Part shown: in pieces, positions 33,128-57,824 of the stretch
Layout of the letters: each line of letters begins with the position of its first letter
Numbering within the stretch: position 1 is the stretch's first letter
Origin: Patescibacteria group bacterium
GTDB taxonomy: Bacteria; Patescibacteriota; Patescibacteriia; Patescibacteriales; UBA12075
DNA: 64,000 bases
Assembly: GCA_018897195.1 (NCBI GenBank)
Contig: JAHILH010000001.1
Location: forward strand, 156,565 to 220,564
Direction: 5' to 3'
Translations under genes and position numbers: made by a program
The notes under the pieces: model-generated
Database searches by the model: none
Told to the model about the DNA's origin: nothing
Seen by the model: only the letters and a program-made list of their open reading frames with translations

Positions 33128-33129
33128 AT

Positions 33130-34530
33130 ATGAAAAACACTATACAAATAAAAAACGCGACTGCGAATAATTTGAAAAATGTCAGTGTGGCTATCCCCTT
33201 GAATAAATTGGTAGTTGTCGCCGGGAAAAGTGGCAGTGGTAAATCTTCTTTGATTTACGATGTGTTGTTTAAGGCATCGCAAGGAGAGAGGGTTGCGGCC
33301 GTGATTGGTAAATTACCAAAGACTTTTGCGATATCACAAAAGGTTAAGTCTGATGGCAAGATGAGCTTGGGTGAAACTAATATGGGTAAATTGCGGGAGA
33401 TTTTAAAAGTTATCAAAAAGGATGAATTGCTGATAATTGATGAGCCTTGCGCAGGGATGAACAAGGTTGACCGCGAAAGTGTTTTGAAATTATTACGAGA
33501 CAGTTTAAAGAAAGGTATTTCAATTATTGTAGTTGAGCACAACAAAGATATCATTGCCAATGCTGATTACGTTATCGAATTTGGCCCTGAGGCGGGCGCT
33601 AAGGGCGGTGAAGTTATTTTTCAGGGCTCGATTGCTGATTATAAAAAAGCCAAGACGCCGACTTCTATTTATGTTTTTTCTAAAAAAGCAGAATTAGTGG
33701 ATTATCAGAGAAGTCCGAATGCCAAGGCAAAATTGATGCAAAAAAAATCTTTGATAATTAAGGGTATAAACCAAAATAATATCAAGAATTATAATTTAAA
33801 TATTCCTCTTGGTAGTTTGGTTTGTATGACTGGCGGGATTGGTACGGGCAAGACAACTTTATTGTCGGTTGCCTATGGTTCTCTGTTCAAGGGCAAGGAT
33901 GCCTGGAAGATGAAGCAAGGTTTTAAATCCATTGAGGGCAAGGCGAATGTGAGAAGATCTTATTTTGTTGACCAGACTATTTTGAGTCCGATTATCACCA
34001 GTACCCCGGCCACCTATCTTGGTATTTGGGATTCAATTCGAGATGTCTTCGGTGGCTTGCCTGAGAGTAAAAAATTGAAATTGAATAAATCGCATTTCAG
34101 TTTGAATACGCAATTTGGTAAAGAAAAAATTCACGTTTTGGAAAAAGTAAAATATAAAAATAAGACAATTTTTGATGTCTTGAAAATGACCATTGATGAA
34201 GCGACTATTTTGTTTGATGATAATTCTTTGGTAAAAAGAAAATTAGGTTTTTTGCAAGAAGTTGGTTTGGGCTATCTGGCCTTGGGACAAAAATCAGGCA
34301 CCCTGTCTGGCGGTGAGGCACAACGAGTGCGCTTGGCGAAGATTTTGTCCAAAAAATTAGGTGATCGTTGTATTTATATTCTAGACATCCCATCGCGAGG
34401 CTTGCATTTGAGCGACCTTCCTACTTTGACGAAAATATTTCAAAAAATTATTGATAAGAATAATACCGTTTTGATTGCCGAGAACAGAGAAGAAATTATT
34501 AACAATTGTGATGCGGTTATAAATCTATAA
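33130..34530 (+). CDS. minimal UvrA-like double-ABC ATPase (466 aa; no zinc modules or UvrB-binding domain)
   Basis: IKNATANNLKNVSVAIPLNKLVVVAGKSGSGKSSLIYDVLF is the UvrA N-terminal motif. The second module has GGIGTGKTT, PATYLGIW and LSGGEAQRVRLA. I chose ATG 33130 because the track's upstream extension crosses the terminator hairpin. Confidence 0.85.
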   Translation: MKNTIQIKNATANNLKNVSVAIPLNKLVVVAGKSGSGKSSLIYDVLFKASQGERVAAVIGKLPKTFAISQKVKSDGKMSLGETNMGKLREILKVIKKDELLIIDEPCAGMNKVDRESVLKLLRDSLKKGISIIVVEHNKDIIANADYVIEFGPEAGAKGGEVIFQGSIADYKKAKTPTSIYVFSKKAELVDYQRSPNAKAKLMQKKSLIIKGINQNNIKNYNLNIPLGSLVCMTGGIGTGKTTLLSVAYGSLFKGKDAWKMKQGFKSIEGKANVRRSYFVDQTILSPIITSTPATYLGIWDSIRDVFGGLPESKKLKLNKSHFSLNTQFGKEKIHVLEKVKYKNKTIFDVLKMTIDEATILFDDNSLVKRKLGFLQEVGLGYLALGQKSGTLSGGEAQRVRLAKILSKKLGDRCIYILDIPSRGLHLSDLPTLTKIFQKIIDKNNTVLIAENREEIINNCDAVINL

Positions 34531-39409: not shown

Positions 39410-39844
39410 TTATTGTCCAAAATTAACAATATACAGAGAAATAATCGCCATTACCAAGATGATATTGGCAAAAAAAGCCGACCCTAAAAGAGTGTAGGCG
39501 ATAAAAGTTCTGTCTTTTTTGTTGTTAATAAAAGATAGAATTAAAAAATTAAGGATAAAAACAAATAAGCCGAATATGGGGAGAATATATAATTTTTTCG
39601 CTTCTCCGTAAAGGTCAATTCCCTTCTCTACGTTATAATGTAAGGCAATATTGTCAGCACCTGCCAAAACAACGGCTTTATGCACTATAACCCAAATAAT
39701 GATATTGATAGCTATAATCGCAATAATAAAAAAGCGAACATAGGTAGCAGAAAATAGTTCACTTAAATAATTTTCAACATCATCTTTTTTAAAGTAAAAA
39801 AAGTCTAAAAATTTGGAAAACATACAGCAAAAAATCTTATCCAC
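39410..39844 (-). CDS. small polytopic membrane protein, unknown function
   Basis: 144 aa with 3-4 predicted TM segments. It occupies the slot upstream of mraY. Confidence 0.5.
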   Translation of the reverse strand: MDKIFCCMFSKFLDFFYFKKDDVENYLSELFSATYVRFFIIAIIAINIIIWVIVHKAVVLAGADNIALHYNVEKGIDLYGEAKKLYILPIFGLFVFILNFLILSFINNKKDRTFIAYTLLGSAFFANIILVMAIISLYIVNFGQ

Positions 39845-39965
39845 TAATTGCGGATTTTGTTAAAACTTCTAAATAAAAAATAACATATATTCCATAAAAA
39901 AACAAATTTTATTCTTTGGTGATAAGCGGTTGTGAATTAATAATATTTCAAAAAAAACAATTTTG

Positions 39966-39974
39966 TGGTATAAT
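39966..39974 (+). promoter_or_regulatory. extended -10 promoter upstream of pilB
   Basis: TGgTATAAT at 39966-39974, 36 nt before ATG 40011. Confidence 0.45.
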
Positions 39975-40010: not shown

Positions 40011-41747
40011 ATGTTTTCAAAAAAGCAATTAAAAAATATTCTTTTGAGTGCGGAAATTATTTCCGCTGATGACTTTGAGAAGTTATCAGCGGAGGCAATT
40101 AGCCTTGGTAAGCCACTTGAGAATTTATTAGTCGAAAAGAAAATTACTTCTTCTTTGGCTATATGTGAAAATGCGGCCAGCTATTACAAGCTGCCCTTTA
40201 TTGATTTAAAAAACCAAAATATTCGTAAAGATGTTTTATTTTCAATTCCAGAACCAATTGCTTCTGCGCACGAAATTATTGCCTTTGACTCTGATGGCAA
40301 GGATTTAAAACTAGCCTTGATAAATCCGGAAAATATCCAGATTATTGAATTTATTAAGAAAAAAACTGGTCTAAATCCAGTGCTTTATGTTACCACCTCT
40401 GACAGTATTCATGACACTTTAAAGCAATATCACAAAAGTCTAAAGGCGGAATTCGATTATTTGTCCGATGAACAAAAAGAGGATCTTTCAGAATTGGATA
40501 TAAACAAAGATTTGAAGAAATTGGCTCAAGATGTGCCCGTGGTTCGTATCGTGGATACTTTATTGGAGTACTCCATTATTGAGGGCGCGAGTGATATTCA
40601 CATTGAGCCAGAAGAAAAAGACGTATTAGTTCGCTATCGTATCGATGGTATTTTGAAAAATGTAATGGTTTTACCCAAGAATGTTCAATCTGGCATTGTG
40701 GCGCGTATCAAAATTTTGGCGAATTTAAAAGTAGACGAACATCGCCTACCACAAGATGGTCGTTTTAAGATTTCCAACGCTGAACATAAGATGGCTTTTC
40801 GTGTTTCGATTTTACCAACCTTTGATGGCGAAAAAATTGTAATGCGTTTGTTAAATGAAAAAGGACAGATTTTAACCTTGGAACAGCTTGGTTTTCAGCG
40901 TAGCGCCTTAGAGGCTTTGAAGCGTAATATTACTAAGCCACACGGTGTGCTTTTGGTGACCGGACCAACGGGGTCAGGAAAAACCACTACCCTATATACA
41001 ATCTTAAGTATTCTTAATCAACCAGAGGTTAATATTTCTACCATTGAGGACCCAATTGAGTATCGTATGCCCCATGTGAACCAGTCACAGGTTAATGCCA
41101 AGATTGGTTACACCTTTGCTCAGGGCTTGCGTGCTTTTTTGCGGCAAGATCCGAATATTATTATGGTGGGAGAAATCCGTGATGAAGAAACGGCTGAAAT
41201 TGCGACGCATGCGGCTATGACTGGTCATATGGTGTTATCTACTATTCATACCAACAGCGCTGCGGCCACTTTGCCTCGTTTAACTGAAATGGGTATCCCC
41301 TCTTTTTTGATTGCAACGACGGCCAATGCTATTATTGCGCAACGTTTGGTGCGAAAAATATGTCCAAATTGTATTCAAAGTTTTAATCTGGATAAAGAAG
41401 TTATTGATAAACTCGAAAAACAATTAAATATCGGAAGTATTTTAACGACACTGGAACAGGAGAAGCAAATTTTGAGCGCTAAAAAGGGGTTATCGCAATT
41501 GCTGTTTTATCGCGGTAAGGGTTGTAAGCAATGTAATAATACTGGCTATAAGGGGCGTATTGGTATTTATGAAATATTAGAAAACACTCCGGATATATCA
41601 TCATTAATTGTTAAAAATGCCAGTGCTCATGAGATTCATCAAAAGGCCATCGAGCAAGGCATGTTGACGATTGTTGAAGATGGTTTTATTAAGGCGAAAA
41701 ACGGCGTGACAACAATTGAAGAGGTGTTGCGCGTGACAAAGGAATAG
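40011..41747 (+). CDS. pilB: type IV pilus assembly ATPase (GspE/PilB family)
   Basis: N-terminal GspE-N-like domain. Walker A GPTGSGKTTT, GEIRDEETA, and tetracysteine CPNC...CKQC. Confidence 0.92.
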   Translation: MFSKKQLKNILLSAEIISADDFEKLSAEAISLGKPLENLLVEKKITSSLAICENAASYYKLPFIDLKNQNIRKDVLFSIPEPIASAHEIIAFDSDGKDLKLALINPENIQIIEFIKKKTGLNPVLYVTTSDSIHDTLKQYHKSLKAEFDYLSDEQKEDLSELDINKDLKKLAQDVPVVRIVDTLLEYSIIEGASDIHIEPEEKDVLVRYRIDGILKNVMVLPKNVQSGIVARIKILANLKVDEHRLPQDGRFKISNAEHKMAFRVSILPTFDGEKIVMRLLNEKGQILTLEQLGFQRSALEALKRNITKPHGVLLVTGPTGSGKTTTLYTILSILNQPEVNISTIEDPIEYRMPHVNQSQVNAKIGYTFAQGLRAFLRQDPNIIMVGEIRDEETAEIATHAAMTGHMVLSTIHTNSAAATLPRLTEMGIPSFLIATTANAIIAQRLVRKICPNCIQSFNLDKEVIDKLEKQLNIGSILTTLEQEKQILSAKKGLSQLLFYRGKGCKQCNNTGYKGRIGIYEILENTPDISSLIVKNASAHEIHQKAIEQGMLTIVEDGFIKAKNGVTTIEEVLRVTKE

Positions 41748-41777
41748 ATTTTTAAAAATAATTAATAAATAAAAACT

Positions 41778-42914
41778 ATGGTAGTTAATTTTAGTTCGCA
41801 GGACTATGGCGCAAATGATGTCAAAAAAGAAGAGGTGCCTATAATGGATAAAATTAATAATTTTCTTCTGACTCTGACTCCAATCGCACTAAAAGAAAAA
41901 TTATTTTTTGTGCAACACTTGGGATTGATGCTTAAGTCCGGCATTTCTCTTGCGCGTGCGCTTAAGACTTTAGCTGACCAATCCGAGAATAAACATTTTA
42001 ATCAAATTTTAACTGATGTGGCTAGCCGAGTTGAAAAAGGCTCAAGTTTTGCTGAATCCTTAGAGGATTATCGTAAAGTTTTTGGTGATCTTTTTTTGAG
42101 TATGATCGACGCCGGAGAATTGTCAGGTAAACTAGAGGAGGTGCTTAGACAACTTTTTGTGCAGATGAAAAAAGAGCATCAATTAGTTTCTAAGGTGAAA
42201 GGGGCCATGACGTATCCGGCAGTTATCCTATTTGCGATGTTCGGTATCGGTGCTTTTATGTTAATCGTGGTGGTTCCAAAAATTACAGCCATGTTTGATG
42301 AGTTACATGCTGAATTGCCACTAGCCACAAAAATTTTGATTGGGGCCAGTGATGCTATTAGAAATAATGGCATAATGGTTGTGATTGGATTGGGAATTTT
42401 TATTACAGCTTGGGTCAAGATATTAAAAACCTATAAAGGAAGATACATTCTTCAGACAATCTTGTTGCGGGCACCGGTTTTTGGCACAATTATCAAAAAA
42501 ATTAATCTCGCGCGTTTCGCGAGAAATATTAGTTCTCTTTTGAAGACTGATATTATGATTGTAAAATGCTTCCAAATCACTGCCAACGTTCTGGGAAATT
42601 TACATTATAAGGCGGCCTTGAATGATATGTCGCAAGTAATCAAGCAGGGCGGTAAATTAAATGAAGCTGTTAAGGCCTATCCCCATCTTTTTACTCCAGT
42701 AGTTGTGCAAATGATTGCCATTGGCGAAGAGACTGGTGAGCTTGATAATATTTTAATGGAATTAGCTGAGTTTTACGAAGATGAAGTTGATCAGATTATG
42801 GAAAATTTACCAACTATTATTGAGCCCTTATTAATTCTTGCACTTGGCCTAGGCGTTGGTGGCGTGGCCGTGGCTATCGTGATGCCAATGTTTGCCATTT
42901 CATCGGCAATATAA
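41778..42914 (+). CDS. pilC: type IV pilus platform protein (GspF/PilC family)
   Basis: Two T2SS-F repeats (SGISLARAL..., GEETGELD) and three TM segments. An alternative start is ATG 41844. Confidence 0.9.
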   Translation: MVVNFSSQDYGANDVKKEEVPIMDKINNFLLTLTPIALKEKLFFVQHLGLMLKSGISLARALKTLADQSENKHFNQILTDVASRVEKGSSFAESLEDYRKVFGDLFLSMIDAGELSGKLEEVLRQLFVQMKKEHQLVSKVKGAMTYPAVILFAMFGIGAFMLIVVVPKITAMFDELHAELPLATKILIGASDAIRNNGIMVVIGLGIFITAWVKILKTYKGRYILQTILLRAPVFGTIIKKINLARFARNISSLLKTDIMIVKCFQITANVLGNLHYKAALNDMSQVIKQGGKLNEAVKAYPHLFTPVVVQMIAIGEETGELDNILMELAEFYEDEVDQIMENLPTIIEPLLILALGLGVGGVAVAIVMPMFAISSAI

Positions 42915-42919
42915 AATTA

Positions 42920-45900
42920 ATGAAATTATCCCCCCAAAAAAATCAAAAAGGCTTTACATTAATTGAGGTTACAGTCTCTTTGGCTATAATCGCTGTTTTG
43001 ATTTTGGGAGTTTACAGCTTGGTAATCTTGTCTCTTAGAATAACGGCTGACAACAAAAACTATGTATCAGCGATTGAGATTGCCAATCAAAAAATGGAGC
43101 AGATTCGCAATATGCCCTATGATAATGTCGGAACTATTGACAGCAGTATTGTCTCTGGCACAATTCCTCAAATAGTTACCATTGAAAGAGGTGGAGTTTT
43201 TACGGTTACAACAAACGTCACCATGCCAAACGATCCATACGATGATATTGCTGGAGTAGATACCATCCCTAATGACTATAAGCAGGCCACGGTTAAAGTT
43301 GGTTGGGAAAGTAGTTATGGTCCAAAAAGTATATCTGTGTTTTCTAAAATAGTTTCCAAGACCAAAGAAGTGGCCGCTGGCTATGGCTTGCTAGAGCTTC
43401 ATTCTGTTGATTCTAATGGATTACCCGTTCCTAATGCTAATGTCTATATAGATAATGATATTTTAGTTCCTGCCATGCATGAACATACGACAGTTACTGA
43501 TGCAAACGGCATATTAAACATGGCGCTTCTTAAGTCATTTCAAGGTTATAAGATTACGGTTAGCAAGGCTGGTTATAGCACTGATTATTCTCTCGACCCC
43601 GCTTCCGGTTTAACACCAATTCATCTCTCAATTACTGAGGGTAATAAAACAGCTGAAAGTTTTTCAATAGATAAGCTAGCTACACTTATTGTTAAAACAT
43701 ATTCTGATAATATTCCTGCAAATTGGATGGTCAATAAGGCGACGTCGACAAGTAGTAAGTCAAAAACAGCTATTTCAAAAGATGATTCCGGAAATATTTA
43801 TTTCATTTGGCAAGATGTAGTTGATGCGACAAACGCAGGTGTTTTTATTCAAAAATATAACTCTGCCAAGACCAGACAATGGCTAAATGATGTTAGAGTG
43901 GAAACCTCAAGTAATGAAACTAATCCTAGTATTGCCACAAGCAAGAACGGCACTTCTTATGTTGTTTGGCAGGACAGTTCAATAGCTTTAAAATCATTGG
44001 CAAAAGCTCCAGTTGAATCAAGTCTAGCCAGTAATGATGACTTGACTAGCCCCAGCAGTGATAAGGTTCTAAACGTGAATAAAATTGTTAAAAGTTCCTT
44101 GCTGAGACCGCTAAGTAATGTTGGCAGACTTGCTGAATTGTATTTTAATAAAATAAAAGTTTTTTTATTTCATGATATTAGAAATAATTCACATATTTTT
44201 GTTGCTAAAATTAAAAAATATTTTAGCAATAACAGTGCTGTTGCCGCCGGTACAGTTACAATTGTACAGACAAAAATAGGCGCAAACGTAAACAATTCAC
44301 CAACCTTGTCAGCTACCTTTGATAGTGCCCCACTTAGCGGTAATGTTATTATTGCCATTGCAAGTCATCGGCATAGTTTCACTTCATTTATTACGCCAGC
44401 TGGTTTTACAAAATCAGTTTATAGCGATGTCTCAGCTAGTCTGGATGCTGGTATCTGGCATAAAGTTGCGGGCGCTAGCGAATCAAAAACAGTCTCTATT
44501 ACAAATTCTGGCGATATAAATGGCGGTGTCTTGATGCTTATGGAGGTAAGTGGACTCGAAACCGCTAGCTTGCTTGATGTTGTCTCAATGAATTATCAAG
44601 GTGACTTGTCTAAAACTGGCAACACCGACTTGACTGCCACTTCAACAAATAACAGTTTTGGCGTCGCGGCAGTGTCTTTTGGTGACGACGCTTTTACGGC
44701 ACCAACTTCGGCAAATTGGCAATCATCATCATCTAATGTGTATACTCAGAAAATGTGGGATGATTGGAATTCTGGAAGCAAAGGGTCCTTGAGTGTGGCG
44801 ACGATAAATATAAATGCTGGTGTTCCACAAAAGGCTACGCTTGGGCCCTTGCTAGGTGGTAGCAATACGTATAGAAATAGCGTCTTGGCAATTTTTAAAA
44901 TTAAAAATGACACCTCTGTTAGTGCAATAAATTCTCAAACAGCCTCTATCACCTTCCCTGCCACAAACCAATATATTGGTGGTTCTTTTGCAATTACGGC
45001 AAGTTCTACAAACTCTGTCAGTAGTATAAAAATAAGTGAAGATGGAACTGTTGATGCGCAAAATAATTTAGAAAATATTCACTTGTATTATGATATAGAC
45101 TCTAGTTTTCCATATGACTGCGTTAGTGAGTCGTACGCTGGTACCGATTTGCAATTTGGTACTAATACTGGTTTTGATAGTTACGATGGTGTGGCAATAT
45201 TTACAAAAGTTGGTGGTGTGACAATCGATACCACACATAGTCTTTGTGTCTATACAGTTCTAGATGTTAAAAGTTCGTCTAATAAAAATGACACCGTTGA
45301 AATTAAAATAAGTAATCCGGCAACAGATGTTATAATTAGCGCTGGTCTTATGACTCCTGGATCTACTGTCGCCATTGCGGGAACAACCATTCTTTTAAAA
45401 CCAGCTGAATTGCAGCAGATTCATTATAGATTTCGCAATGATGATGGTGATGAAAGCACTGCTTCTTGGAGTAAGACCGAAGATAATAATTTGATAACCA
45501 AAATAGGGGCTCCGGTTAGACTGAGATTTGCCGTTACCAATGCAGGCAGCTTTGATTCCGCTGCTACTAGTTATCAGATTCAGTACGGCGAAAAAGATAC
45601 TACCTGTGCTGCAATTTCAGTCTGGAGTTCATTGCCGGCAAAATGGAAAATGTACAACTCGAGCAATATTAACGATGGTGATGCAACGACTGATTCTACT
45701 GGTATTACCAATGAAAATACTAATTTTAAGGCTAGTCAAATAAAAGATACTGGTAGTCAAACTTCAGCACTGACACTCACCTCTTCTGATTTTACCGAAA
45801 TTGAATATTCTCTTGAGGCTGATGGTAGTGCATCTGAAAAAACTTATTGCTTCCGCTTGACCAATGCTGGCGCAACCACCCAGTTTAACTATATTGAATA

Positions 45901-47020
45901 TCCCGAGATTAGCATTGTCGGCGATGATAATATTTATATAAAAAGTTTTAATAATGACGGGAGTGAACACTGGGGCGTGAAAAGAGTTCATTTGGATTCG
46001 TCTAGTGTTAATCAGCAAAATCCGCAAATTGCTATCACGGAAAATTTTGGCACGGCCACAACTACGGTTATTTGGGAAGATAGTCGCAATGGCAATATTG
46101 ATATTTACGCGCAAAGCTTTAATGAGGGCGGCAACCGCTTATGGAGTAGTGATTTGAGAATCACTAGTTCTTCAACAAATGAAATAAATCCCGTGATTGA
46201 TATCGACGCAGAAGACAATATTTATATCAGCTGGGAGGAACAAGGCGATATTTATTTACAAAAATTTGATATTGATGGTAATAAGTTGTGGCTTGAGCCT
46301 ATTAATATCACTAATTCAGGTGTTGCAGATTTTCGACCAAGAATTAGCCATGCTTCAACAACTGCCCTTTTATCCTGGACTGCATCAGAATCATCTATTT
46401 ATAATACTTATTTAGCCAAATTTGATAGCACAGGTAGCTTAATTTGGAAAGAACGGGCAAATGTAGAGTCTAGTGAAAAAAACCAATTCTACCCGACTAT
46501 TGCTAGTAATGATTCTAATGTTTATGTAACATGGACTGATGATCGTAATGGTAATAACAACATCTATGCTCAAAAATTTAATCTCAGCGGTGTTGCAGAG
46601 TGGACCAATGATCAAAAAATAACCGACGATATAGACTCGTCAGATCAAAATTCACCTGCTATTATCATAAGTTCAGATAATAAAATTTTTAGTGCTTGGC
46701 ACGATGAAAGAAGTTTATCCAAGGAGATCTATGCAACCGAAATTAGCGAACCAGGAACACCAACGGTGGTGGCCAATGTCCCCTTGGTTATAACCGGCTC
46801 AAGATTGATATACAAAGATCCATTGCAGTATAAATATAGTCAAACGCATGCTACTGACGGTGGTGGTGACTTGTCTTTGCAGTTGGAGTGGGATGCATCA
46901 TATCAAATAGTTGCAAGCAGCACCTTGACAGGGCTAATTGTGACTGAATGCCGCCCCCTTAACTGCCCTATTAGTATTAGCGCTGATGAAATAAAAACAA
47001 TTGAAATTTATGTTAAATAA
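42920..47020 (+). CDS. giant prepilin-like protein (1,366 aa) with CarboxypepD_reg-like segment and propeller-type repeats
   Basis: MKLSPQKNQKG/FTLIEVTVSLAIIAVLILGVYSL is a class III signal. The repeat signature recurs: VIWEDSRNGNIDIYAQSF, VTWTDDRNGNNNIYAQKF, SAWHDERSLSKEIYATEI. Confidence 0.85.
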   Translation: MKLSPQKNQKGFTLIEVTVSLAIIAVLILGVYSLVILSLRITADNKNYVSAIEIANQKMEQIRNMPYDNVGTIDSSIVSGTIPQIVTIERGGVFTVTTNVTMPNDPYDDIAGVDTIPNDYKQATVKVGWESSYGPKSISVFSKIVSKTKEVAAGYGLLELHSVDSNGLPVPNANVYIDNDILVPAMHEHTTVTDANGILNMALLKSFQGYKITVSKAGYSTDYSLDPASGLTPIHLSITEGNKTAESFSIDKLATLIVKTYSDNIPANWMVNKATSTSSKSKTAISKDDSGNIYFIWQDVVDATNAGVFIQKYNSAKTRQWLNDVRVETSSNETNPSIATSKNGTSYVVWQDSSIALKSLAKAPVESSLASNDDLTSPSSDKVLNVNKIVKSSLLRPLSNVGRLAELYFNKIKVFLFHDIRNNSHIFVAKIKKYFSNNSAVAAGTVTIVQTKIGANVNNSPTLSATFDSAPLSGNVIIAIASHRHSFTSFITPAGFTKSVYSDVSASLDAGIWHKVAGASESKTVSITNSGDINGGVLMLMEVSGLETASLLDVVSMNYQGDLSKTGNTDLTATSTNNSFGVAAVSFGDDAFTAPTSANWQSSSSNVYTQKMWDDWNSGSKGSLSVATININAGVPQKATLGPLLGGSNTYRNSVLAIFKIKNDTSVSAINSQTASITFPATNQYIGGSFAITASSTNSVSSIKISEDGTVDAQNNLENIHLYYDIDSSFPYDCVSESYAGTDLQFGTNTGFDSYDGVAIFTKVGGVTIDTTHSLCVYTVLDVKSSSNKNDTVEIKISNPATDVIISAGLMTPGSTVAIAGTTILLKPAELQQIHYRFRNDDGDESTASWSKTEDNNLITKIGAPVRLRFAVTNAGSFDSAATSYQIQYGEKDTTCAAISVWSSLPAKWKMYNSSNINDGDATTDSTGITNENTNFKASQIKDTGSQTSALTLTSSDFTEIEYSLEADGSASEKTYCFRLTNAGATTQFNYIEYPEISIVGDDNIYIKSFNNDGSEHWGVKRVHLDSSSVNQQNPQIAITENFGTATTTVIWEDSRNGNIDIYAQSFNEGGNRLWSSDLRITSSSTNEINPVIDIDAEDNIYISWEEQGDIYLQKFDIDGNKLWLEPINITNSGVADFRPRISHASTTALLSWTASESSIYNTYLAKFDSTGSLIWKERANVESSEKNQFYPTIASNDSNVYVTWTDDRNGNNNIYAQKFNLSGVAEWTNDQKITDDIDSSDQNSPAIIISSDNKIFSAWHDERSLSKEIYATEISEPGTPTVVANVPLVITGSRLIYKDPLQYKYSQTHATDGGGDLSLQLEWDASYQIVASSTLTGLIVTECRPLNCPISISADEIKTIEIYVK

Positions 47021-47075
47021 AATTTTAAAAAAGCCATTGTTTTTTTATATGGCTGGGCATTCATTTTCCTCAACT

Positions 47076-47651
47076 ATGAAAAATAAAACCGGTTTCACTA
47101 TGATTGAATTAATTGTCGTGATTGCAGTTATGGGTGTCATCTCAACCATGGTTTTAAATTTTACCGTCATGGGTCTGAGAGCTTCTCGTTTTGAGGCTGA
47201 ACAAGCTGAAGCGGTCAAACAAGCCAGAGATGCAATGAACATTATGAAGACTGAAATTAGAGGCGCAAATAATTCCGCCCATGGTGATTACCCGATTTCT
47301 GTAATTACTAATCAAGAGTTTGCTTTTTTCTCCGACATCGACAAGGATGATGTGTATGAAAAAGTTAGATACTACCTCGACGGCTTGGAGTTAAAAAAAG
47401 CTGTCATTGAGCCCAATATCTCTAATTTGTATACAGACCCACCAGTCATTACGGTTATTGCTAATTACGTCAATAATCAAACCGAAAATGTCTTTAACTA
47501 CTATACCTCTAATTATACTATTGCTGGGGATATTAACGAGGTTAGATTAATTAATATGAATTTAAAAATCAACGTTACTCCGGAAATATCACCGGCTGAT
47601 ATTTATGTCGAAACTGATGTTGCTCTCCGTAATCTTAAATCAAATTTATAA
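47076..47651 (+). CDS. minor (pseudo)pilin
   Basis: MKNKTG/FTMIELIVVIAVMGVISTMVL is a class III signal. I chose ATG 47076 over the track start at 47001, which overlaps the previous gene. Confidence 0.75.
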   Translation: MKNKTGFTMIELIVVIAVMGVISTMVLNFTVMGLRASRFEAEQAEAVKQARDAMNIMKTEIRGANNSAHGDYPISVITNQEFAFFSDIDKDDVYEKVRYYLDGLELKKAVIEPNISNLYTDPPVITVIANYVNNQTENVFNYYTSNYTIAGDINEVRLINMNLKINVTPEISPADIYVETDVALRNLKSNL

Positions 47652-47655
47652 GTTA

Positions 47656-49245
47656 ATGAATATGCAGAAACAAAAAATAAAACAATTCATGAATAACAGC
47701 AGAGGCTCGATGTTAATCCTTGCCTTGGTTTTGACCGGTCTTTTTATGGCCATGACTATGGGCGCCATCGGCCTAGCTCTTTTACAACAAAAATTAAATA
47801 TGATCAAAATTGCCAGCAATCAAGCCGTTCATATTGCTGAGGCTGGTGTTAATTATTATCGCTGGGTGCTATATCATGATCCAGAAGAGTATTGCAATAA
47901 AGAGGCTTGTCGTGCCTCGACCACTCCATATGGGCCATACGCATATACGGACGCTAGTGGCAGCATTACAGGTCATTATGAGTTATATATTACCCCACCA
48001 GCTATTAATGCCTCAACTATCGTGACAGTTAAATCAATAGGGTGGGAAGATGGCCACCCAAGCGTTAAAAGAGTCATTGAGGTTAAACTAGGAAAACCCT
48101 CTTGGTCTAATTTTGCAACTTTATCTAATAATGATATTACATTTGGTGCTGATACTGAGGTTTGGGGGCCTATTCATTCAAATGGCGGTGTTCGATTTGA
48201 TGGAATAGCTCATAATATTATTACCTCTTCCAAGGATTATTATACCGACCCAGATCATGCCAGTAGTGATGTTTTTGCGTTTGGAGTGCATACTCACAAT
48301 GGTGCTGGTAATGGTACTTATAATACAACCGAAGAAGGAAATCCCGGACTAAGTCTTCCTGCGCCAGATCAAAGTGCAACTTTTCTTTCTGGTCGCGAAT
48401 TCCCCGTCCCAATCGTGAGCTTTAGTTTATTAGATAACTATATAAGTGAGACATATATTAAAGCTTCTTCAAGCGGAATGATTATTGATCCTAGAAGTGC
48501 TGGGATAGCTGATCCTGAATCAGAGCCAACTCTTCGTAATTGCATTAGCTCTACCTGCGACGAGGGATTCCATATTACACTAAAAACAAATAATACTTTT
48601 GAAATTAGGGATGTCTCCGCTGTTTTCCCGGATTGGAGTAATAATCCCAGTGCAGACTCTAAAAGCCTTAGTATAAAAACTGAAGGAGCTGCTAAAACTT
48701 TTAGCATTCCGGAGAACGGAATAATTTTTGTCAAAAATCATGTCTGGATTGATGGAAAAATAAACGGAAGCAAGGTGAACGTTTTAGCATTTTTCGAACC
48801 GTTTACGGGCACTGTTAACACTGCGAGTATAATCACTAATAAGGATTTACTTTATACAAATTATGACGGCACAGACTCCATTGGACTTATCGCTCAAGGC
48901 GATATTGGCCCTGGTTTGTATAGCGAAGGTGCTTTGTCGGGAACGGAGGATCAAATGGAATTAAGAATTGATGCAGCTATGATTGCTAAGACTGGTCGAG
49001 TCGGTCGTTTGTATTACAAGCACAGTAGCGGCGATGAGTATCCCAAGAGACAAACGATAACTATTTATGGGTCTTTGGCAACAAACCAGCGCTATGGTTT
49101 TAGTTATTCTTGTGGCACCAGTGATCAATGGTGTTCTGGATATAAAATTAGGAATATAATTTATGATAATAATCTTACGCTGGATCCCCCGGCGAATTTT
49201 CCTACCACGGGAGAGTATACTTTTGTTTCTTGGAAAGAAGATTAA
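47656..49245 (+). CDS. large PilX-N-terminal-like pilus-associated protein
   Basis: NNSRGSMLILALVLTGLFMAMTMGAIGL resembles the PilX N-terminal hydrophobic segment. About 490 aa of unknown fold follow. The start is placed after the previous stop. Confidence 0.6.
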   Translation: MNMQKQKIKQFMNNSRGSMLILALVLTGLFMAMTMGAIGLALLQQKLNMIKIASNQAVHIAEAGVNYYRWVLYHDPEEYCNKEACRASTTPYGPYAYTDASGSITGHYELYITPPAINASTIVTVKSIGWEDGHPSVKRVIEVKLGKPSWSNFATLSNNDITFGADTEVWGPIHSNGGVRFDGIAHNIITSSKDYYTDPDHASSDVFAFGVHTHNGAGNGTYNTTEEGNPGLSLPAPDQSATFLSGREFPVPIVSFSLLDNYISETYIKASSSGMIIDPRSAGIADPESEPTLRNCISSTCDEGFHITLKTNNTFEIRDVSAVFPDWSNNPSADSKSLSIKTEGAAKTFSIPENGIIFVKNHVWIDGKINGSKVNVLAFFEPFTGTVNTASIITNKDLLYTNYDGTDSIGLIAQGDIGPGLYSEGALSGTEDQMELRIDAAMIAKTGRVGRLYYKHSSGDEYPKRQTITIYGSLATNQRYGFSYSCGTSDQWCSGYKIRNIIYDNNLTLDPPANFPTTGEYTFVSWKED

Positions 49246-49286
49246 AATGTGTTACAATAAAGTTATAAAATATTTAATACTAAAGT

Positions 49287-50435
49287 ATGCTCTCATTCAG
49301 ACAATCAAATTTTCCCATCGGACTTGACATATCAGACACCTCGCTTAAATTAGTTCAATTAAGGAAAAAAACCAACAAAATTAAAATTCAGGCGATGGGA
49401 CGAGTTGAATTGCCTATCGGTACTATTGAAAAAGGTGAAATAAAAAATCAACGTGTTTTTTTGGAATCATTGGAGAAGTTAATTGCTAAGCCAAAATTTG
49501 GCAATATTACCACTAATGAAATTGTTGCATGTTTGCCAGAGTCAAAAACTTACATAGAATTAATCAAGATTGCTAAATCATCAAATCAGATTGAAAATGT
49601 AATAGAGACTGAGATGGAAAAATATTTCCCCATTTCCGCTAATGAATTATTTTATGATTGGCAAATATTTAGTGAAGATAAAAATAACTATAGTGTTTTA
49701 ATCGGCGCTGCCGAGAAAGCTGTAGTAACACAGTATATTGCCATTTTTAATAAAGCCAAGCTTTCAACGGTTGCTTTGGAGATTGAGTCTGTGGCCATTT
49801 GCCGGGCTTTATTGACCGAGGAGTCACCAAATTTCAAAATTAAGCAATTTAAAAATTACCTAATTATTGATATAGGCTACAATCGTACCAATTTAATAGC
49901 CTATTCTGGCAATGCCATTGTTTTTTCAGTAAGCATCCCCGTGTCTGGCAGAGAGATTACAAAAAAAATTGCCGATATTTTAGAAATAAGCGAGGAACAA
50001 GCCGAGAAGGCAAAGATAATTTGCGGTCTTGATGAAACAATTGCCAAGGGTATAATTAAAAAAATTCTTGCTAACACCTTAGACGTTGTTAACAAAAGAA
50101 TTGAGTCTGCTCTAGAATTTTACAATAATAATTATAGTAGCCTTGGGCCGATTAATGAAATAATTTTATCTGGCGGTGGTTCTAATATTAAAGACCTAGA
50201 TAAAATTATTGCAGAAAATATAAAAATCGAAACAAAAAATGGTGATATTTTTACACACCTAGATAGAGAATTTAGTGATAGTTTTTCTAAAAATTTGATA
50301 GAAACCCATGATCTAAAATTAGACAATATCAAGGGGTTAGATGATAAAAAACTTTCAATTAAACAAAGTACCAGCTCTGGATACGCGACAGCTATCGGAC
50401 TGTCATTAAGAAATATATTTATAGCTAATAAATAA
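49287..50435 (+). CDS. pilM: type IV pilus assembly protein PilM (actin-like ATPase fold)
   Basis: PIGLDISDTSLKLVQL, the ILSGGGSNI motif, and position before the pilN/pilO-like genes. Confidence 0.85.
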   Translation: MLSFRQSNFPIGLDISDTSLKLVQLRKKTNKIKIQAMGRVELPIGTIEKGEIKNQRVFLESLEKLIAKPKFGNITTNEIVACLPESKTYIELIKIAKSSNQIENVIETEMEKYFPISANELFYDWQIFSEDKNNYSVLIGAAEKAVVTQYIAIFNKAKLSTVALEIESVAICRALLTEESPNFKIKQFKNYLIIDIGYNRTNLIAYSGNAIVFSVSIPVSGREITKKIADILEISEEQAEKAKIICGLDETIAKGIIKKILANTLDVVNKRIESALEFYNNNYSSLGPINEIILSGGGSNIKDLDKIIAENIKIETKNGDIFTHLDREFSDSFSKNLIETHDLKLDNIKGLDDKKLSIKQSTSSGYATAIGLSLRNIFIANK

Positions 50436-50436
50436 A

Positions 50437-50970
50437 ATGATTACATTAAACATTATCTCGCCAGAATTAAAAAATGAGATCAAATTAAAGTATATTTATC
50501 GGATTATTGGAAAGTCTTTTATCTTGATTGGTGTTTTTTTGGGATTCTATGCGATTATTTTAGTCTCTTCAAGAATTGTTCTCAGTTCTTACTTGAGTGA
50601 AGTTAGTCAGATGAACAGCACTACCAACGAGTCAACTAACAATACGGTTAAGGCGGTTAATGATGTAAATAAAAAATTAAAAGAAGTCGCCGTTATTCAA
50701 AAAGATGAAATAAGTTGGTTAAATCTCTTGGAGTTAATCTCTCAAAATACTTCTAAAGATATCAAATATAATAAAATATCAATGGATAGAAATAATGGGC
50801 TTAGCCTCACTGGGCAATCAAAAACCAGGGATGGCCTGATTAAGATAAAAAAATTCCTCGATGAGTCCGCCTTCCTTTCCGACGTCGACTTCCCTATTAG
50901 CAATTTACTGGAAAAAGAGAATATAAATTTTAATATTAGCGCCAAAATTAATAATTATGAATTTAAATAA
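50437..50970 (+). CDS. pilN: PilN-like bitopic protein
   Basis: 177 aa with a single N-terminal TM. It is start/stop-coupled to pilM. The call rests on position and topology. Confidence 0.55.
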   Translation: MITLNIISPELKNEIKLKYIYRIIGKSFILIGVFLGFYAIILVSSRIVLSSYLSEVSQMNSTTNESTNNTVKAVNDVNKKLKEVAVIQKDEISWLNLLELISQNTSKDIKYNKISMDRNNGLSLTGQSKTRDGLIKIKKFLDESAFLSDVDFPISNLLEKENINFNISAKINNYEFK

Positions 50971-51583
50971 TCAAAAACATTATTCAGCTAAGCAAAAAAT
51001 AACTAATATAATTTTTTTATTTATAGTTTTTTTTGGTGCTTTGTTGTATTTTGCAATTATACCATCAATAGCCGCTATTAATGATCTTGAGGTAAAAATT
51101 ATTAATGAGAAAATAAACAGTGAAAAAAAATATCAAATTGAAAATAACGCCATTAGTCTAAATAAGAAAATAGGTGAAATTGAACCAAGCGTAAAAACTC
51201 TGGAGGAGGTATTTATTAATAAAAACAGAGAATTAGAGTTTATTACCGTTTTGGAAAGTGTTGCGAATAAAAACAATGTAGAGCAAAAAATAAGCCTAAC
51301 CTCTCCAGCGAGTGAAGATAAAACCGTCAAAGCGACAAAAAACAACAGTGCCAATAAAGAGTCTGGAAATAATAACTTGTTTGTGCCAATGACAATAACC
51401 TTAAGCGGTAATTACAAAAATGTAGTGAACTATCTTTCTGAATTACAATCTTTAAAATATTACATCAACATTGATGGATTGGATTTTGTCAGCGGGTCGT
51501 CCAACGGCTCCCTGCCTAATGACAATTCTAGCCGCAATCAAATAATTACTTTAAATATAGTGGCAAAAACTTATTGGAAATAA
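50957..51583 (+). CDS. PilO-like bitopic protein
   Basis: 208 aa with an N-terminal TM and coiled coil. It overlaps the pilN end by 14 nt. The call rests on position and topology only. Confidence 0.45.
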   Translation: MNLNNQKHYSAKQKITNIIFLFIVFFGALLYFAIIPSIAAINDLEVKIINEKINSEKKYQIENNAISLNKKIGEIEPSVKTLEEVFINKNRELEFITVLESVANKNNVEQKISLTSPASEDKTVKATKNNSANKESGNNNLFVPMTITLSGNYKNVVNYLSELQSLKYYINIDGLDFVSGSSNGSLPNDNSSRNQIITLNIVAKTYWK

Positions 51584-51584
51584 T

Positions 51585-51854
51585 ATGCAGTTAAAATTAA
51601 TAATTTCAAAAAACAACATCGTGAATCTGATAAATCCTATCATATACGCAATAAATATTATTGTTATTATTATTGTAATCATCTTTATTAATAAAAATGT
51701 TTATCAGACAATAGCAATCCAAGGCCAAGACTTAAGAGATCGGATTAATGAATCGCCAAATGATATAAACATTGAAGAGTTTAATAAAGTGGTAGATAAA
51801 ATAAATTACCGCAAAACTAAACAGCAATCAATTACGATTGGAGAAATTTTTTAA
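51585..51854 (+). CDS. 89-aa single-TM protein ending the pilus operon
   Basis: Its start lies 1 nt after the pilO-like stop. TM is IIYAINIIVIIIVIIFI. No family recognised. Confidence 0.4.
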   Translation: MQLKLIISKNNIVNLINPIIYAINIIVIIIVIIFINKNVYQTIAIQGQDLRDRINESPNDINIEEFNKVVDKINYRKTKQQSITIGEIF

Positions 51855-52985
51855 TATTTTTTGTAAATATTTTTCAAGAGAATAGTTGTTAATATTTTTT
51901 GTGTAATTTTTTTTTAAATTCTCAATTTTTTGAGGATTTTTTATTATCCAGTCTATTTTTTTTTGCAAATCAGTCTGGTCGCCAGGATTGAATAATATCC
52001 CGCCGATGTCGTGAAGGAGCTCAGTAATGCCGCCAATTCGTGAACCTAGCACTGGTAGTCCGGCTGCCATGGCCTCGTAGATAACTGTTGGTGAATTTTC
52101 ATAGCATAAAGAAGGAACTATTAAGCAGTCAGCATTCTTCATGATTTCAACAACTTCTTCTTTTGATTTTCTACCAGTAATAATAATATTTTTTTTATTT
52201 TTGGTGTTTTCCACGAGTTGTTGCCGATAACTTCCGTCGCCTACAATTTTCAATTCAACTCCATTTATGGTGGCAAGGGCGTTAGCTAAAAATTCAACAC
52301 CTTTGTATTTTTCTACTTGACCAACATAAAGAAATTGAAAAATATTATTTTTTGGTGTGGCGTATTGTTCAATCTTGTTAATATTAACCGGGTTTGGAAT
52401 AACGCTCGTAGTTATTTTTTTAAAAAAACCTCTCTTTAGATGCTGGTCTAGTAGCCATTGTGAAGGTGAAACAATTTCTTCGCAAAAGTTAAATAAATAT
52501 CTAGAAAAGTTCATGTAAAATTTTGCACCAAGACTATCTAGTACTTGTTCTTGTCCGTGCATTATCAAGCCTGATGGGTGCAATAGTTGCACATCATGAA
52601 GTATGTGAATATGCCTGGTATTTGTTTTTTTAATTATTAATGGCAGTAAAAAGCTAATCCCCTTTAGATTGTTGGTGATTATTAAATCTGGTTTTTCCTG
52701 TGACAAAATATTCTTAACCTGCAAGGCGGTAAAAATATCAAACATGTCATAAAAATGCCAAAATAAGCGAAAAAAAACAGGCATTTTGCCTAGGTTATAA
52801 TAGCAAGATTTTAAATTATACTTACCAGCGCTGTTAGTAATTTTTTTATTAAATCTGGGAGTGGTTGATATGACAAAAACGTCATGCTTAAGTTCGGCAA
52901 GGCCACCATTGATTGATTCAAGGACTATTTCAGCGCCACCGCGCGCAAAGGGTTTATATAAGTTATTGATCAAGCAAATTTTCAT
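51828..52985 (-). CDS. GT4-family glycosyltransferase
   Basis: GT-B layout. C-terminal ENSPTVIYEAMAAGLPVLGSRIGGITELL is the E-x7-E region. Confidence 0.85.
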   Translation of the reverse strand: MKICLINNLYKPFARGGAEIVLESINGGLAELKHDVFVISTTPRFNKKITNSAGKYNLKSCYYNLGKMPVFFRLFWHFYDMFDIFTALQVKNILSQEKPDLIITNNLKGISFLLPLIIKKTNTRHIHILHDVQLLHPSGLIMHGQEQVLDSLGAKFYMNFSRYLFNFCEEIVSPSQWLLDQHLKRGFFKKITTSVIPNPVNINKIEQYATPKNNIFQFLYVGQVEKYKGVEFLANALATINGVELKIVGDGSYRQQLVENTKNKKNIIITGRKSKEEVVEIMKNADCLIVPSLCYENSPTVIYEAMAAGLPVLGSRIGGITELLHDIGGILFNPGDQTDLQKKIDWIIKNPQKIENLKKNYTKNINNYSLEKYLQKILKNFSNRN

Positions 52986-55709: not shown

Positions 55710-57824
55710 TTATAATTCAATTGCTGCGACTGAAACTCCGCCATTAAAACTTTCCTCATAGGCATAAAAAGAGGAAACCAGCGTACCGTTGTCGTCGAAA
55801 GCTCTGACATGTGGAGCGCCACCAGGCCCAGTCCCTGTGATAATTTCTTTTTGACCATCATAATCAATATCTGCCAAGGAAATATTTACACCACCCTTGA
55901 ATTGCTCAGCATAGGCAAAAAATTGGCCATGTAGCTTGAAGTGATTGTCAAAGATTTTTATTTGCGGTCCACCACCCTTTCCTGGCGCTGTTATAATCAT
56001 TGAACGGGCATTTCGGACGCTATCATTGAATGCTCCAACCGCGACGTTTACACCGCCTCTGAATTTTTTATCATAAGCAAAGTATTGTCCTTTTAACTGT
56101 CCGTTGTTGTTAAAAATACGTACCTGTGGTCCACCGCCGACGCCAGCACCTGTTACTATTTCAGATATACCATCACCATCAAGGTCGCCAGCTGCGACAT
56201 TTACACCACCTCTGAAATTTTTGTCATAGGCAAAAAATTGCCTTTTTAATTCGCCTTTATGATTAAAAACTCTAATGTGCGGTCCGCCACCAATACCAGC
56301 GCCGACTACAATCTCCGAAAATCCATCACCATCAATATCTGAAACTACTACATTTACACCACCTTTAAACTTCTTATCAAAAGCATAAAATTCTTTTTTT
56401 AATTTACCATCACTGCTAAAGATTTTTACATGAGGACTGTTTCCAGTATTTGCGCTAACGATAATTTCAGATAAACCATCTCCGTTGACATCGCCGGTTG
56501 CGACATTGACGCCACCCTTGAAATTTTGATCAAAGGCAAAAAATTTATTTAAAATTTTTCCATCTTTGTCTGTCAATAATATCTCACCATTTTTTCCCGA
56601 TAGCGGGCCAATAACTAAATCAACATTCTTTTTTTGAGAAATATCAAGTACGTTATTAATGGCAGCGTAAACGTTTAGTCTGCCGCTCCCAAGTTTACCG
56701 ATATAGTTTGGGTTTAAATTATCAATATTATCTGTATTTTTTAGCAATGCGTTAACCACCTCACTTCTTGATAGGTGCGGATTGGCTGCCTCAATCAAAG
56801 CAACTGCTCCGGAAACCATAGGCACAGCCATTGAAGTTCCAGCCCAGTAGCCATCATAATTATTGTTAAAAACAGTTGAGCCTGGTTTATTTACAGCAGT
56901 ACTAAAAATACTAATACCTGGTGCGGAAATATCAATGCACCTACTGCCATAGCCTGAAAAATTTGCTTTTTGATCAAGTGAATCAGTTGCCGCAACACCG
57001 ATTACCATGTTTTCACCATTTTTACCATCGTAGCAAACGGGATATAGTGGCTCTTTGTCTAAAAAATGGCTACTATCACCTTCCATGTCATTGCCAGCTG
57101 CGGCCACGACCACAATACCGGCGTTATAGGCTCGCCTAATAGCGTCTTCTAGGATTGAGCTGTATCCAGCGCCAACAAAGCTTAAGTTGATAATATCAGC
57201 TCCGTTTTTAATTGCATAATCAATCGCCCTAACAACGCTCTTTGTATTTCCCTCTCCCTTGCCATTTAAAACACGCAGGGGCATAATCTTGGCATTCCAG
57301 GCAACACCAGTAATGCCTAAGAAGTTATTACCACCGGCAGCGGCAACACCTGCTACAACTGTTCCGTGCATGATGCCGTCCTTGGTATAGCCTTCGTCGT
57401 ATTTAGGATTTGGGTCTGAGTTGTTTTCAACGAAGTCCCAACCATTATAATCATCAATAAACCCATTACCATCATCATCTCTATTATTTTTGGGCACCTC
57501 GCCGGAATTAATCCAGATATTATCTTTAAGGTCTGGGTGATTAATTTGTACCCCTGAATCAATAACGGCAATAATAATACTACTAGCATCCCAATGCTCG
57601 TCCCATGTTTCCACAGCCTTAATTCTTTTTAAATACCACTGCTTATCAAAATAAGGGTCGGACGGAACAGTGCTGGCCCTATAGATGTTAACATCGTCTT
57701 TTTCGGTAAACTTAATCTCAAAATCTGCTGTTTTATTAGCTAAAACCGCAGAAGGATAAAAAAAGTTACCGGCAATGCTAGCCAGCAAAAATAAAATAAA
57801 AAAAGATGATATTTTTTTTCTCAT
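55710..57824 (-). CDS. secreted S8 subtilisin-like protease with C-terminal FG-GAP-like repeats
   Basis: Signal peptide from ATG 57824 (MRKKISSFFILFLLASIAG). Catalytic triad motifs AVIDSGV, HGTVVAG and GTSMAVP. About 5.5 repeats of roughly 50 aa follow (F.AYDKKFRGGVNVA.GD.DGDG.SEI..G.G.GGGP.V.IF). Confidence 0.88.
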   Translation of the reverse strand: MRKKISSFFILFLLASIAGNFFYPSAVLANKTADFEIKFTEKDDVNIYRASTVPSDPYFDKQWYLKRIKAVETWDEHWDASSIIIAVIDSGVQINHPDLKDNIWINSGEVPKNNRDDDGNGFIDDYNGWDFVENNSDPNPKYDEGYTKDGIMHGTVVAGVAAAGGNNFLGITGVAWNAKIMPLRVLNGKGEGNTKSVVRAIDYAIKNGADIINLSFVGAGYSSILEDAIRRAYNAGIVVVAAAGNDMEGDSSHFLDKEPLYPVCYDGKNGENMVIGVAATDSLDQKANFSGYGSRCIDISAPGISIFSTAVNKPGSTVFNNNYDGYWAGTSMAVPMVSGAVALIEAANPHLSRSEVVNALLKNTDNIDNLNPNYIGKLGSGRLNVYAAINNVLDISQKKNVDLVIGPLSGKNGEILLTDKDGKILNKFFAFDQNFKGGVNVATGDVNGDGLSEIIVSANTGNSPHVKIFSSDGKLKKEFYAFDKKFKGGVNVVVSDIDGDGFSEIVVGAGIGGGPHIRVFNHKGELKRQFFAYDKNFRGGVNVAAGDLDGDGISEIVTGAGVGGGPQVRIFNNNGQLKGQYFAYDKKFRGGVNVAVGAFNDSVRNARSMIITAPGKGGGPQIKIFDNHFKLHGQFFAYAEQFKGGVNISLADIDYDGQKEIITGTGPGGAPHVRAFDDNGTLVSSFYAYEESFNGGVSVAAIEL

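Follow-up and report, generated by a model that had tools for sequence, protein, structure and literature searches.

The subject of this study is a type IV pilus operon located at positions 40011-51854 on the forward strand of a 64-kb stretch of DNA from a Patescibacteria group bacterium (contig JAHILH010000001.1). The whole of this stretch is referred to here as the window. We read the locus as the core type IV pilus operon of a member of the Patescibacteria (candidate phyla radiation, CPR) related to Ca. Falkowbacteria, in which the motor, platform and alignment genes are accompanied by a cassette of minor pilins. The operon would have no secretin gene as the cell has no outer membrane, the proteins in the V, W and X slots of the cassette would form the tip complex, and the missing genes would be located elsewhere in the genome. 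To this combined reading we assign a probability of about 0.8. Pili are thought to serve these uncultured ultrasmall bacteria in locating and holding on to their hosts, and the locus provides a candidate for the host-contact end of a Falkowbacteria-group pilus, comprising a three-gene cassette, a domain-mapped pilin of 1366 residues and two uncatalogued modules of ~170 residues. The secretin-less operon in itself adds nothing new, as such a pilus is what is already generally accepted for CPR bacteria.

Gene content, order and origin of the operon

Nine open reading frames on the forward strand make up the operon. Their identities and order were observed directly and are given below, with a slash marking the cleavage site in prepilin leaders.

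40011-41747, forward strand: pilB, extension ATPase of 578 amino acids with an MshEN N-terminal domain (PF00437, 437 bits; PF05157, 39.5 bits)
41778-42914, forward strand: pilC, inner-membrane platform protein of 378 amino acids (PF00482 T2SSF, 193 bits in two stretches)
42920-47020, forward strand: giant modular prepilin in the V slot, 1366 amino acids (leader MKLSPQKNQKG/FTLIEV, Glu at +5; PF07963, 37 bits)
47076-47651, forward strand: prepilin in the W slot, 191 amino acids (leader MKNKTG/FTMIEL, Glu at +5; PF07963, 29.7 bits)
47656-49245, forward strand: X-type protein in the X slot, 529 amino acids, with one N-terminal hydrophobic helix, no G/F...E5 cleavage motif and a beta-rich body
49287-50435, forward strand: pilM, cytoplasmic actin-like protein of 382 amino acids (PF11104, 134 bits; TIGR01175, 137.5 bits against a cut-off of 133)
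50437-50970, forward strand: pilN-like gene, bitopic membrane protein of 177 amino acids (PF05137, 19.7 bits against a gathering score of 22.8; one transmembrane segment, residues 22-53)
50957-51583, forward strand: pilO-like gene, bitopic membrane protein of 208 amino acids (PF04350, 27.0 bits against a gathering score of 22)
51585-51854, forward strand: last gene of the operon, encoding a single-transmembrane protein of 89 amino acids without Pfam family (transmembrane segment at residues 11-45)

A first-pass annotation, made from the letters of the window, had proposed this gene order, and both the order and the coordinates were borne out when the open reading frames were re-checked. Two of its sizes required a small correction: the second prepilin has 191 rather than 192 residues (ATG at 47076), and the protein given as 530 residues has 529 (ATG at 47656). 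Gene callers applied to other assemblies start the W-slot prepilin earlier, resulting in 200 or 213 residues. The 27-nt overlap described at the end of the operon is real and lies between the gene for the 89-residue protein and a convergent GT4 glycosyltransferase gene at 51828-52985 on the reverse strand.

The taxonomic affiliation is likewise a direct observation. The closest genome matches of PilM, with 41-52% identity, were in Ca. Falkowbacteria and other metagenome-assembled genomes of Patescibacteria. NCBI assigns the window's own proteins to Patescibacteria or Parcubacteria and names the giant gene product a prepilin-type N-terminal cleavage/methylation domain protein of a Patescibacteria or Parcubacteria bacterium. 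An identical locus has been assembled separately in ENA ERZ27247113 and in several Logan runs.

The co-localisation of PilB, PilC, PilM, a putative PilN and PilO, the lack of PilQ, and minor pilins with elaborate extra domains are features that the locus shares with the pili of CPR bacteria (PMC6744442) and of TM7x. Among the equivalog models, PilB scored best on TIGR02538 (578 bits), yet stayed below the cut-off of 675.65 bits. The match to GspE (538 bits) was likewise below the cut-off of its own model. The PilN-like protein is encoded between pilM and pilO in every relative, and position as well as topology fit PilN. Its orthologs in the related loci L004 and L005 passed the PF05137 threshold (23.4 and 28.5 bits), the one in L013 scored below it (20.9 bits) and the one in L008 gave no match; a PilN profile found no match among PDB sequences. 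For PilO, a profile built from five sequences matched PilO of M. xanthus (3jc8) with an E-value of 2.3e-5. The first-pass annotation had allowed for its pilN and pilO calls failing in profile searches. This was not the case, as PilO passed and the PilN-like protein of the window fell just under a threshold that the orthologs in L004 and L005 pass.

The 89-residue protein is conserved in position, whereas its sequence diverges fast. A gene for 88-115 amino acids occupies the same place in L004, L005, L008, L013 and L015, and in L016 a gene for 88 amino acids follows pilO on the opposite strand. Alignment with the relatives gave 24-34% identity and a YQTIA-like motif, and a homology search with this protein found only 3 relatives. 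The GC content of 0.289 at 50001-52000, a region containing pilN, pilO and this last gene, is the minimum of the window; the same genes diverge fastest in the operon.

Absence of a secretin and of other pilus components from the window

A Pfam scan of all other plausible open reading frames of at least 100 amino acids in the 64 kb revealed no secretin (PF00263), no Peptidase_A24 and no further ATPase of the T2SSE family. Prepilins beyond those starting at 42920 and 47076 were not found in two motif scans of all six frames of the same DNA. These scans agree with the earlier statement that the operon ends with no secretin and that pilD, pilT and a small major pilin are missing from the window. 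A match to PilP was also missing from the window, where the gene for the 89-residue transmembrane protein occupies the place after pilO. No Secretin or PilP was found after pilO in L004, L005, L008, L013, L015 and L016, and no secretin, PilD or PilT within ~10 kb in the related loci that carry the giant gene. A tblastn search with PilB against the loci L001-L008 and the window gave no PilT paralog, and Pfam gave no second T2SSE ATPase in L001-L008.

The secretin-less layout is the norm for this lineage and not an anomaly. CPR genomes were found to co-localise PilB/T/C/M/N/O/D without PilQ, consistent with the lack of an outer membrane (Meheust et al. 2019, PMC6744442), and the same PilQ-less set is present in a closed Microgenomates genome (Kadnikov et al. 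2020, PMC7143001). Because the cell has no outer membrane, a secretin would not be needed. The interpretation as a monoderm-type pilus, put forward in the first-pass annotation, is therefore supported by the affiliation with Patescibacteria, by the published PilQ-less pili of CPR bacteria and by the same operon end in relatives.

The comparison of synteny in related genomes, which the annotation had proposed, showed directly that the related loci share the secretin-less layout, and the operon end was alike in all related loci read. In L013, in which the giant protein is only 46% identical, the arrangement extends unchanged from mraY as far as a convergent GT4 gene, which again overlaps the gene for the 89-residue protein. 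As related loci including L013 keep the same layout, an assembly artefact is excluded as its cause. The window does originate from a metagenome assembly, so that a secretin gene might have been lost during assembly or binning of a diderm genome. This explanation is, however, effectively refuted: independent assemblies in ENA and several Logan runs arrived at the identical sequence, divergent genomes, contigs of 0.5-1.3 Mb among them, keep the operon end, unrelated conserved genes border the operon without a gap, and the lineage is known to be without PilQ.

Clostridium-type operons have the gene order pilB-pilC-pilM-pilN-pilO. The monoderm Firmicutes pili combine PilM, PilN and PilO with the lack of a secretin (review PMC6916266), as does the present system with its PilN-like protein. 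In operons of Firmicutes, however, the major pilin and PilD are commonly encoded in or next to the operon, whereas here neither is encoded within 64 kb. The major pilin, PilD and any PilT would thus be encoded elsewhere in the genome. Candidate major pilins are known from two of the related loci, since N_methyl pilins of 173-178 amino acids adjoin the minor-pilin triad in L009 and L014.

The operon might alternatively encode a competence pilus for DNA uptake or a pseudopilus resembling type II secretion, with the minor pilins forming a tip of the GspH/I/J/K kind and not part of an adhesive surface pilus. Such an assignment would be in line with the similar scores of PilB on the GspE and PilB models, with the best match of PilC to GspF, with weak matches to GspH, GspI and GspJ in the prepilins, with the lack of PilT in the window, and with the DNA uptake that has been proposed for CPR pili (PMC6744442). 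Nevertheless, we consider it unlikely. PilM, PilN and PilO, represented here by PilM, a PilN-like protein and PilO, are hallmarks of type IVa pili and missing from ComG systems, and the scores of the ComGA and ComGB models remained below their cut-offs (259 against 300 bits and 139 against 240 bits, respectively). GspC, GspL, GspM and GspD, on which an assignment to type II secretion was tested, were not found in the window. Furthermore, a pilin of 1366 residues with a propeller and several beta-sandwiches would be hard to accommodate in a short, periplasm-like pseudopilus, and adhesion and DNA uptake are compatible functions of one pilus.

The giant prepilin and the minor-pilin cassette

The giant prepilin has a class III signal peptide and therefore is a pilin. 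On the PilV model TIGR02523 it gave a match over residues 9-65 (E-value 1.8e-6) with 28.4 bits against a cut-off of 52.2, and the best BLASTP matches of residues 5-111 were V-slot minor pilins of relatives. The family comprises 55 clusters, mostly of 1330-1415 amino acids, besides short forms of 754-778 amino acids. The domain anatomy, which was directly observed, is as follows.

43406-43588, forward strand: CarboxypepD_reg-like beta-sandwich, residues 163-223 (PF13620, 28.4 bits with the whole protein and 32.5 bits with the fragment, cut-off 32.3)
43772-43987, forward strand: first two propeller blades, residues 285-356 (YFIWQD and YVVWQD motifs, found by motif scan)
43988-45916, forward strand: propeller insert of ~640 amino acids, residues 357-999, missing from the short forms of 757 amino acids
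44900-45916, forward strand: two all-beta modules of ~170 amino acids each (insert domains B and C, residues ~661-999), without Pfam family
45917-47017, forward strand: remaining propeller blades and C-terminal beta-sandwich (from ~1281), residues 1000-1366 (repeats of the type W-x-D-x-R-x-G-N-x-D-I-Y-A-Q)

The short form P0049 (757 amino acids) aligns with residues 9-356 of the giant joined straight to residues 1000-1366, and residues 357-999 therefore represent an insert. Its flanks carry W-x-D/E blade motifs, and thus the insert splits a beta-propeller. The blades in residues 1000-1366 gave weak matches to NCBIfam beta-propeller repeats (E-value ~1e-7). An AlphaFold2 model of residues 168-1366, based on a 36-sequence alignment, reached a mean predicted local distance difference test score (pLDDT) of 83.3 and a predicted template modelling score (pTM) of 0.58, and is all-beta except for one linker. 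Judged from secondary structure and pLDDT in this model, the insert consists of that linker (residues 362-444, low confidence) and of the all-beta domains A (~447-647), B (~650-820) and C (~823-997). The linker is the least conserved part, with 22% identity compared to 45-51% for the insert domains. Fragments of insert and propeller matched no Pfam family at E-values up to 1.

The presence of PF07963 and PF13620, several beta-sandwiches and a propeller in the AlphaFold2 model, and domains B and C that are shared with giant proteins other than pilins identify the protein as a modular type IV pilin. Modular pilins have been reported to be widespread, including examples in Falkowbacteria and examples with PF13620 modules, and were predicted to be located at the tip (Raynaud et al. 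2021, PMC8179133). With its insert, the giant of the V slot represents a further member of this already known type. As in PilB and PilC of Streptococcus sanguinis, a pilin module (IPR012902/PF07963) is fused to modules not related to pili. In contrast to these proteins, however, the giant is much larger, and its at least 6 extra domains are mostly without a database signature.

In an exhaustive phmmer search with the insert, 1353 cluster representatives were matched at E-values up to 0.001. The stretches at ~305-472 and 472-643 of the insert query are repeated as many as 21-24 times in proteins reaching 6179 amino acids, among them giants of 3924 amino acids (24 matched stretches) and 6179 amino acids (21 stretches). 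The modules occur singly or in pairs, often in long tandem arrays, and no informative Pfam domain was detected in 6 module-bearing proteins that were scanned. The two modules of ~170 residues give the impression of a repeat domain that occurs in giant surface proteins and is as yet uncatalogued. The possibility that insert domains B and C are copies of one repeat was tried and rejected. Their BLASTP comparison gave an E-value of 0.24, and they are therefore treated as two distinct modules.

A Foldseek search of the PDB with the model of the giant returned generic beta-propeller matches only, the best of which were sialidases of glycoside hydrolase family 33 (GH33, E-value 7e-10) and propeller enzymes of GH43/GH62. 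Together with the glycosyltransferase cluster that adjoins the operon, these matches would suit an enzyme, sialidase-like or another glycoside hydrolase, that is located on or exported by the pilus and attacks host glycans. The similarity is nevertheless that of propellers in general, with TM-scores of 0.18 by query and 0.36 by target, a root-mean-square deviation of 24 Å and 7-10% identity. Pfam gave no BNR/Asp-box, GH33 or GH43 match, even for fragments at E-values up to 1, and the blade motif W-x-D-x-R-x-G-N-x-D-I-Y-A-Q is not an Asp-box. An enzymatic role thus appears quite improbable, and the specific proposal of a sialidase, which had no Pfam support, was dismissed.

The order V, W, X, an X-type protein that is without Glu5 and is the largest ordinary minor pilin, and an associated beta-propeller that would act as adhesin are reminiscent of the tip complexes of type IVa pili (FimU-PilV-PilW-PilX with PilY1) and of type II secretion systems (GspH-I-J-K). 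In contrast to these complexes, PilY1 does not occur here as a protein of its own, PF05567 has no match, the propeller forms part of a true pilin, and the operon has no gene of the H/FimU type. The giant was tested for membership in the PilY1 family: it had no PF05567 match, and PilY1 was absent from its best 50 Foldseek matches in the PDB. The protein may have a function similar to that of PilY1 without belonging to that family. In the Saccharibacterium TM7x (Nanosynbacter lyticus), the adhesin candidate is a minor pilin that bears a beta-propeller, and the major pilins are encoded in separate loci (PMC11623550 / PMC12206443). There, however, the propeller resides on PilX2, which has no signal for PilD, whereas here it belongs to the V-slot protein with a canonical class III signal. 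Further differences from TM7x are the insert of ~640 amino acids that splits the propeller and the different, solenoid-like beta body of the X-slot protein.

The W-slot protein has its best BLASTP matches in the W-slot genes of relatives. A nine-sequence alignment of this family showed invariant G, F and E, an RYY motif and a C-terminal V-x-x-RN, and the corresponding profile matched PDB sequences by the generic N-terminal pilin helix only. The best BLASTP matches of the X-slot protein were likewise the X-slot genes of relatives. More than 1646 homologs with ~50% identity were found, some of which are named PilX N-terminal domain proteins by NCBI. PilX_N (PF14341) was detected in 9 of 43 sampled members of the X family (best E-value 2.9e-7), and the protein of the window itself had no match to Pfam or NCBIfam. 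Its AlphaFold2 model (pLDDT 83.3, pTM 0.80) shows a helix of 60 residues (15-74), a sheet and solenoid-like strands. Foldseek detected nothing significant for this model in the PDB, with an ice-binding beta-helix of the DUF3494 type as best match (E-value 0.06) and tapirins at E-values above 3, and a profile of the X family had no match among PDB sequences. Of the annotation's description of three pilin-like genes, the large size applies to all three, whereas a class III signal peptide is present only in those at 42920 and 47076, both of which also exceed the cut-off of PF07963.

The related loci preserve the cassette. In L005 and L008, pilB-pilC is followed by a GspH-like gene (~148 amino acids), a PilV-like prepilin (~145), a third prepilin (~190), a protein of ~410 amino acids with a PilX-type N-terminus, pilM, pilN, pilO and a transmembrane gene for 91-115 amino acids. 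L004 has the same order from the cassette on, its contig beginning inside the cassette. The genes for the large V-slot protein and for proteins of ~195 and ~500 amino acids are adjacent in six other loci, among them L009, L013, L014, L015 and L016, and remain so where the arrangement of pilB, pilC and pilM around them has changed. None of the operons seen to carry a giant gene contained the GspH-like gene. The V, W and X slots were assigned from position, best BLASTP matches and the adjacency of the triad, and the three proteins are therefore read as the minor-pilin set for priming and tip formation. Most likely, they represent this complex and not the filament subunit, and the 1366-residue pilin is probably an adhesin at the pilus tip.

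Several points weigh against this interpretation and against the wider reading of the operon as a Falkowbacteria-type pilus. The V/W/X labels lean mainly on gene order together with weak matches, and the PilV and GspI profiles remained below their cut-offs. Moreover, the W profile recognises the generic helix only, the X-slot protein is without a match to PilX_N, to a PDB sequence or to a known fold, and the PilN-like protein of the window is under its Pfam threshold. The GspH/FimU-like gene of the relatives with small forms is absent here, and the presence of PilD, PilT and a major pilin in the genome is assumed. For single proteins, the family labels V, W and X are sub-threshold at the sequence level and thus remain putative, although slot order and best BLAST matches agree with each other.

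The first-pass annotation had stated that the filament-forming subunit must be encoded elsewhere or be one of the three large proteins. Of these two options the first is likelier and the second disfavoured, as the three proteins occupy the minor-pilin slots. The absence of a small pilin from operon and window and the canonical G/F...E5 signals of both prepilins could be taken to indicate that one of the large pilin-like proteins builds the filament. However, the 191-residue protein aligns with the W-slot genes of relatives and not with a major pilin, and it follows from the modelling of modular pilins (PMC8179133) that a subunit of 1366 residues could be packed only at the tip and not along the shaft. 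Separate N_methyl pilins next to the triad in the giant-carrying loci L009 and L014 and the separate loci of the major pilins in TM7x also contradict this proposal, which we regard as very unlikely.

The following mechanism, together with a position at the tip, a role as adhesin and a place of the missing genes elsewhere in the genome, is one that we infer from established type IV pilus biology. PilB would drive PilC, and PilM would bind PilN at its cytoplasmic N-terminus. The alignment complex in the membrane would consist of PilN and PilO and possibly of the lineage-specific 89-residue protein, and the filament would have to cross only the cytoplasmic membrane and the wall. PilD would cleave the two G/F prepilins, whereupon the V, W and X proteins would prime assembly on PilC and cap the filament, the shaft of which would be built from a major pilin encoded elsewhere. 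In this position the V-slot extension of 1200 residues, consisting of beta-sandwiches and the interrupted propeller, and the beta-rich body of the X-slot protein may be displayed as an adhesin, which would contact a host cell or a glycan.

As a more speculative extension of the tip-complex reading, the V-W-X triad may be a conserved movable tip cassette of Falkowbacteria-type pili, with the V protein as a pilin-propeller adhesin for host recognition. The insert, which distinguishes the 1366-residue from the ~757-residue forms and is partly built from the two modules of ~170 amino acids that it has in common with more than 1000 giant surface proteins, might then determine which host or glycan the epibiont binds. 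We put forward this proposal tentatively and consider it possible, though doubtful.

In L009 (1-9360, reverse strand) and L014 (1-9041, reverse strand), both from genomes with contigs above 1 Mb, the V-W-X cassette adjoins enormous open reading frames, which encode 8033 amino acids in L009 and 2148 and 1209 amino acids in L014. Only the 1209-residue protein had a Pfam match, a faint one to MG2. PilM is fused to SH3 domains in both genomes (627 and 504 amino acids).

Neighbouring genes and other features of the window

A promoter-like site was found in the 166-nt gap 5' of pilB.

39947-39974, forward strand: promoter-like site composed of TTCAAA, a 16-nt spacer and a TG-extended TATAAT (consensus scan, 10/12 matches)

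The site is a pattern match only, of a kind that AT-rich DNA such as that found here often yields. Upstream of the operon and divergent from it, a gene for a multi-transmembrane protein of 144 amino acids is followed by mraY, ftsW, murG and murC. MurC, MurG, FtsW, MraY, TatD and an ABC-like protein of 495 amino acids were named from their translations and from the Pfam annotation of identical loci. The 144-residue protein (39410-39844, reverse strand), encoded between mraY and pilB, has 4-5 predicted transmembrane segments and belongs to no family. A gene for 137-139 amino acids is present at the same spot in L010, L013 and L016, and the gene is thus a conserved feature of the boundary between dcw cluster and pilus operon. 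This protein and a multi-transmembrane protein of 206 amino acids that also adjoins the operon were considered as cryptic prepilin peptidases and rejected, as neither gave a Peptidase_A24 match even at E-values up to 1.

On the other side of the operon, a cluster of glycosyltransferase and epimerase genes includes a gene for a subtilase (Peptidase_S8) of 717 amino acids with FG-GAP repeats (55710-57863, reverse strand). L013 has the same subtilase neighbour, indicating that the linkage of pilus operon, sugar genes and protease is conserved.

At 4-8 kb the GC content is 0.43-0.45, compared to ~0.37 window-wide. The open reading frames at 3653-4753, 6647-7168 and 7252-7959 belong to no Pfam family and have N-termini resembling those of lipoproteins or signal sequences, and the region 3653-7959 may be an acquired island. 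Tandem tRNA-Glu genes (anticodons CTC and TTC), separated by 61 nt, are located at 31542-31748 on the reverse strand. The 495-residue ABC-type ATPase (33043-34530, forward strand) has a UvrA-like N-terminal sequence and approximately half the length of UvrA; in identical loci it comprises 466-492 amino acids. Finally, a protein of 542 amino acids encoded at 61566-63194 on the reverse strand resembles the large subunit of [FeFe]-hydrogenases and contains Fe_hyd_lg_C together with 2Fe-2S and 4Fe-4S domains.

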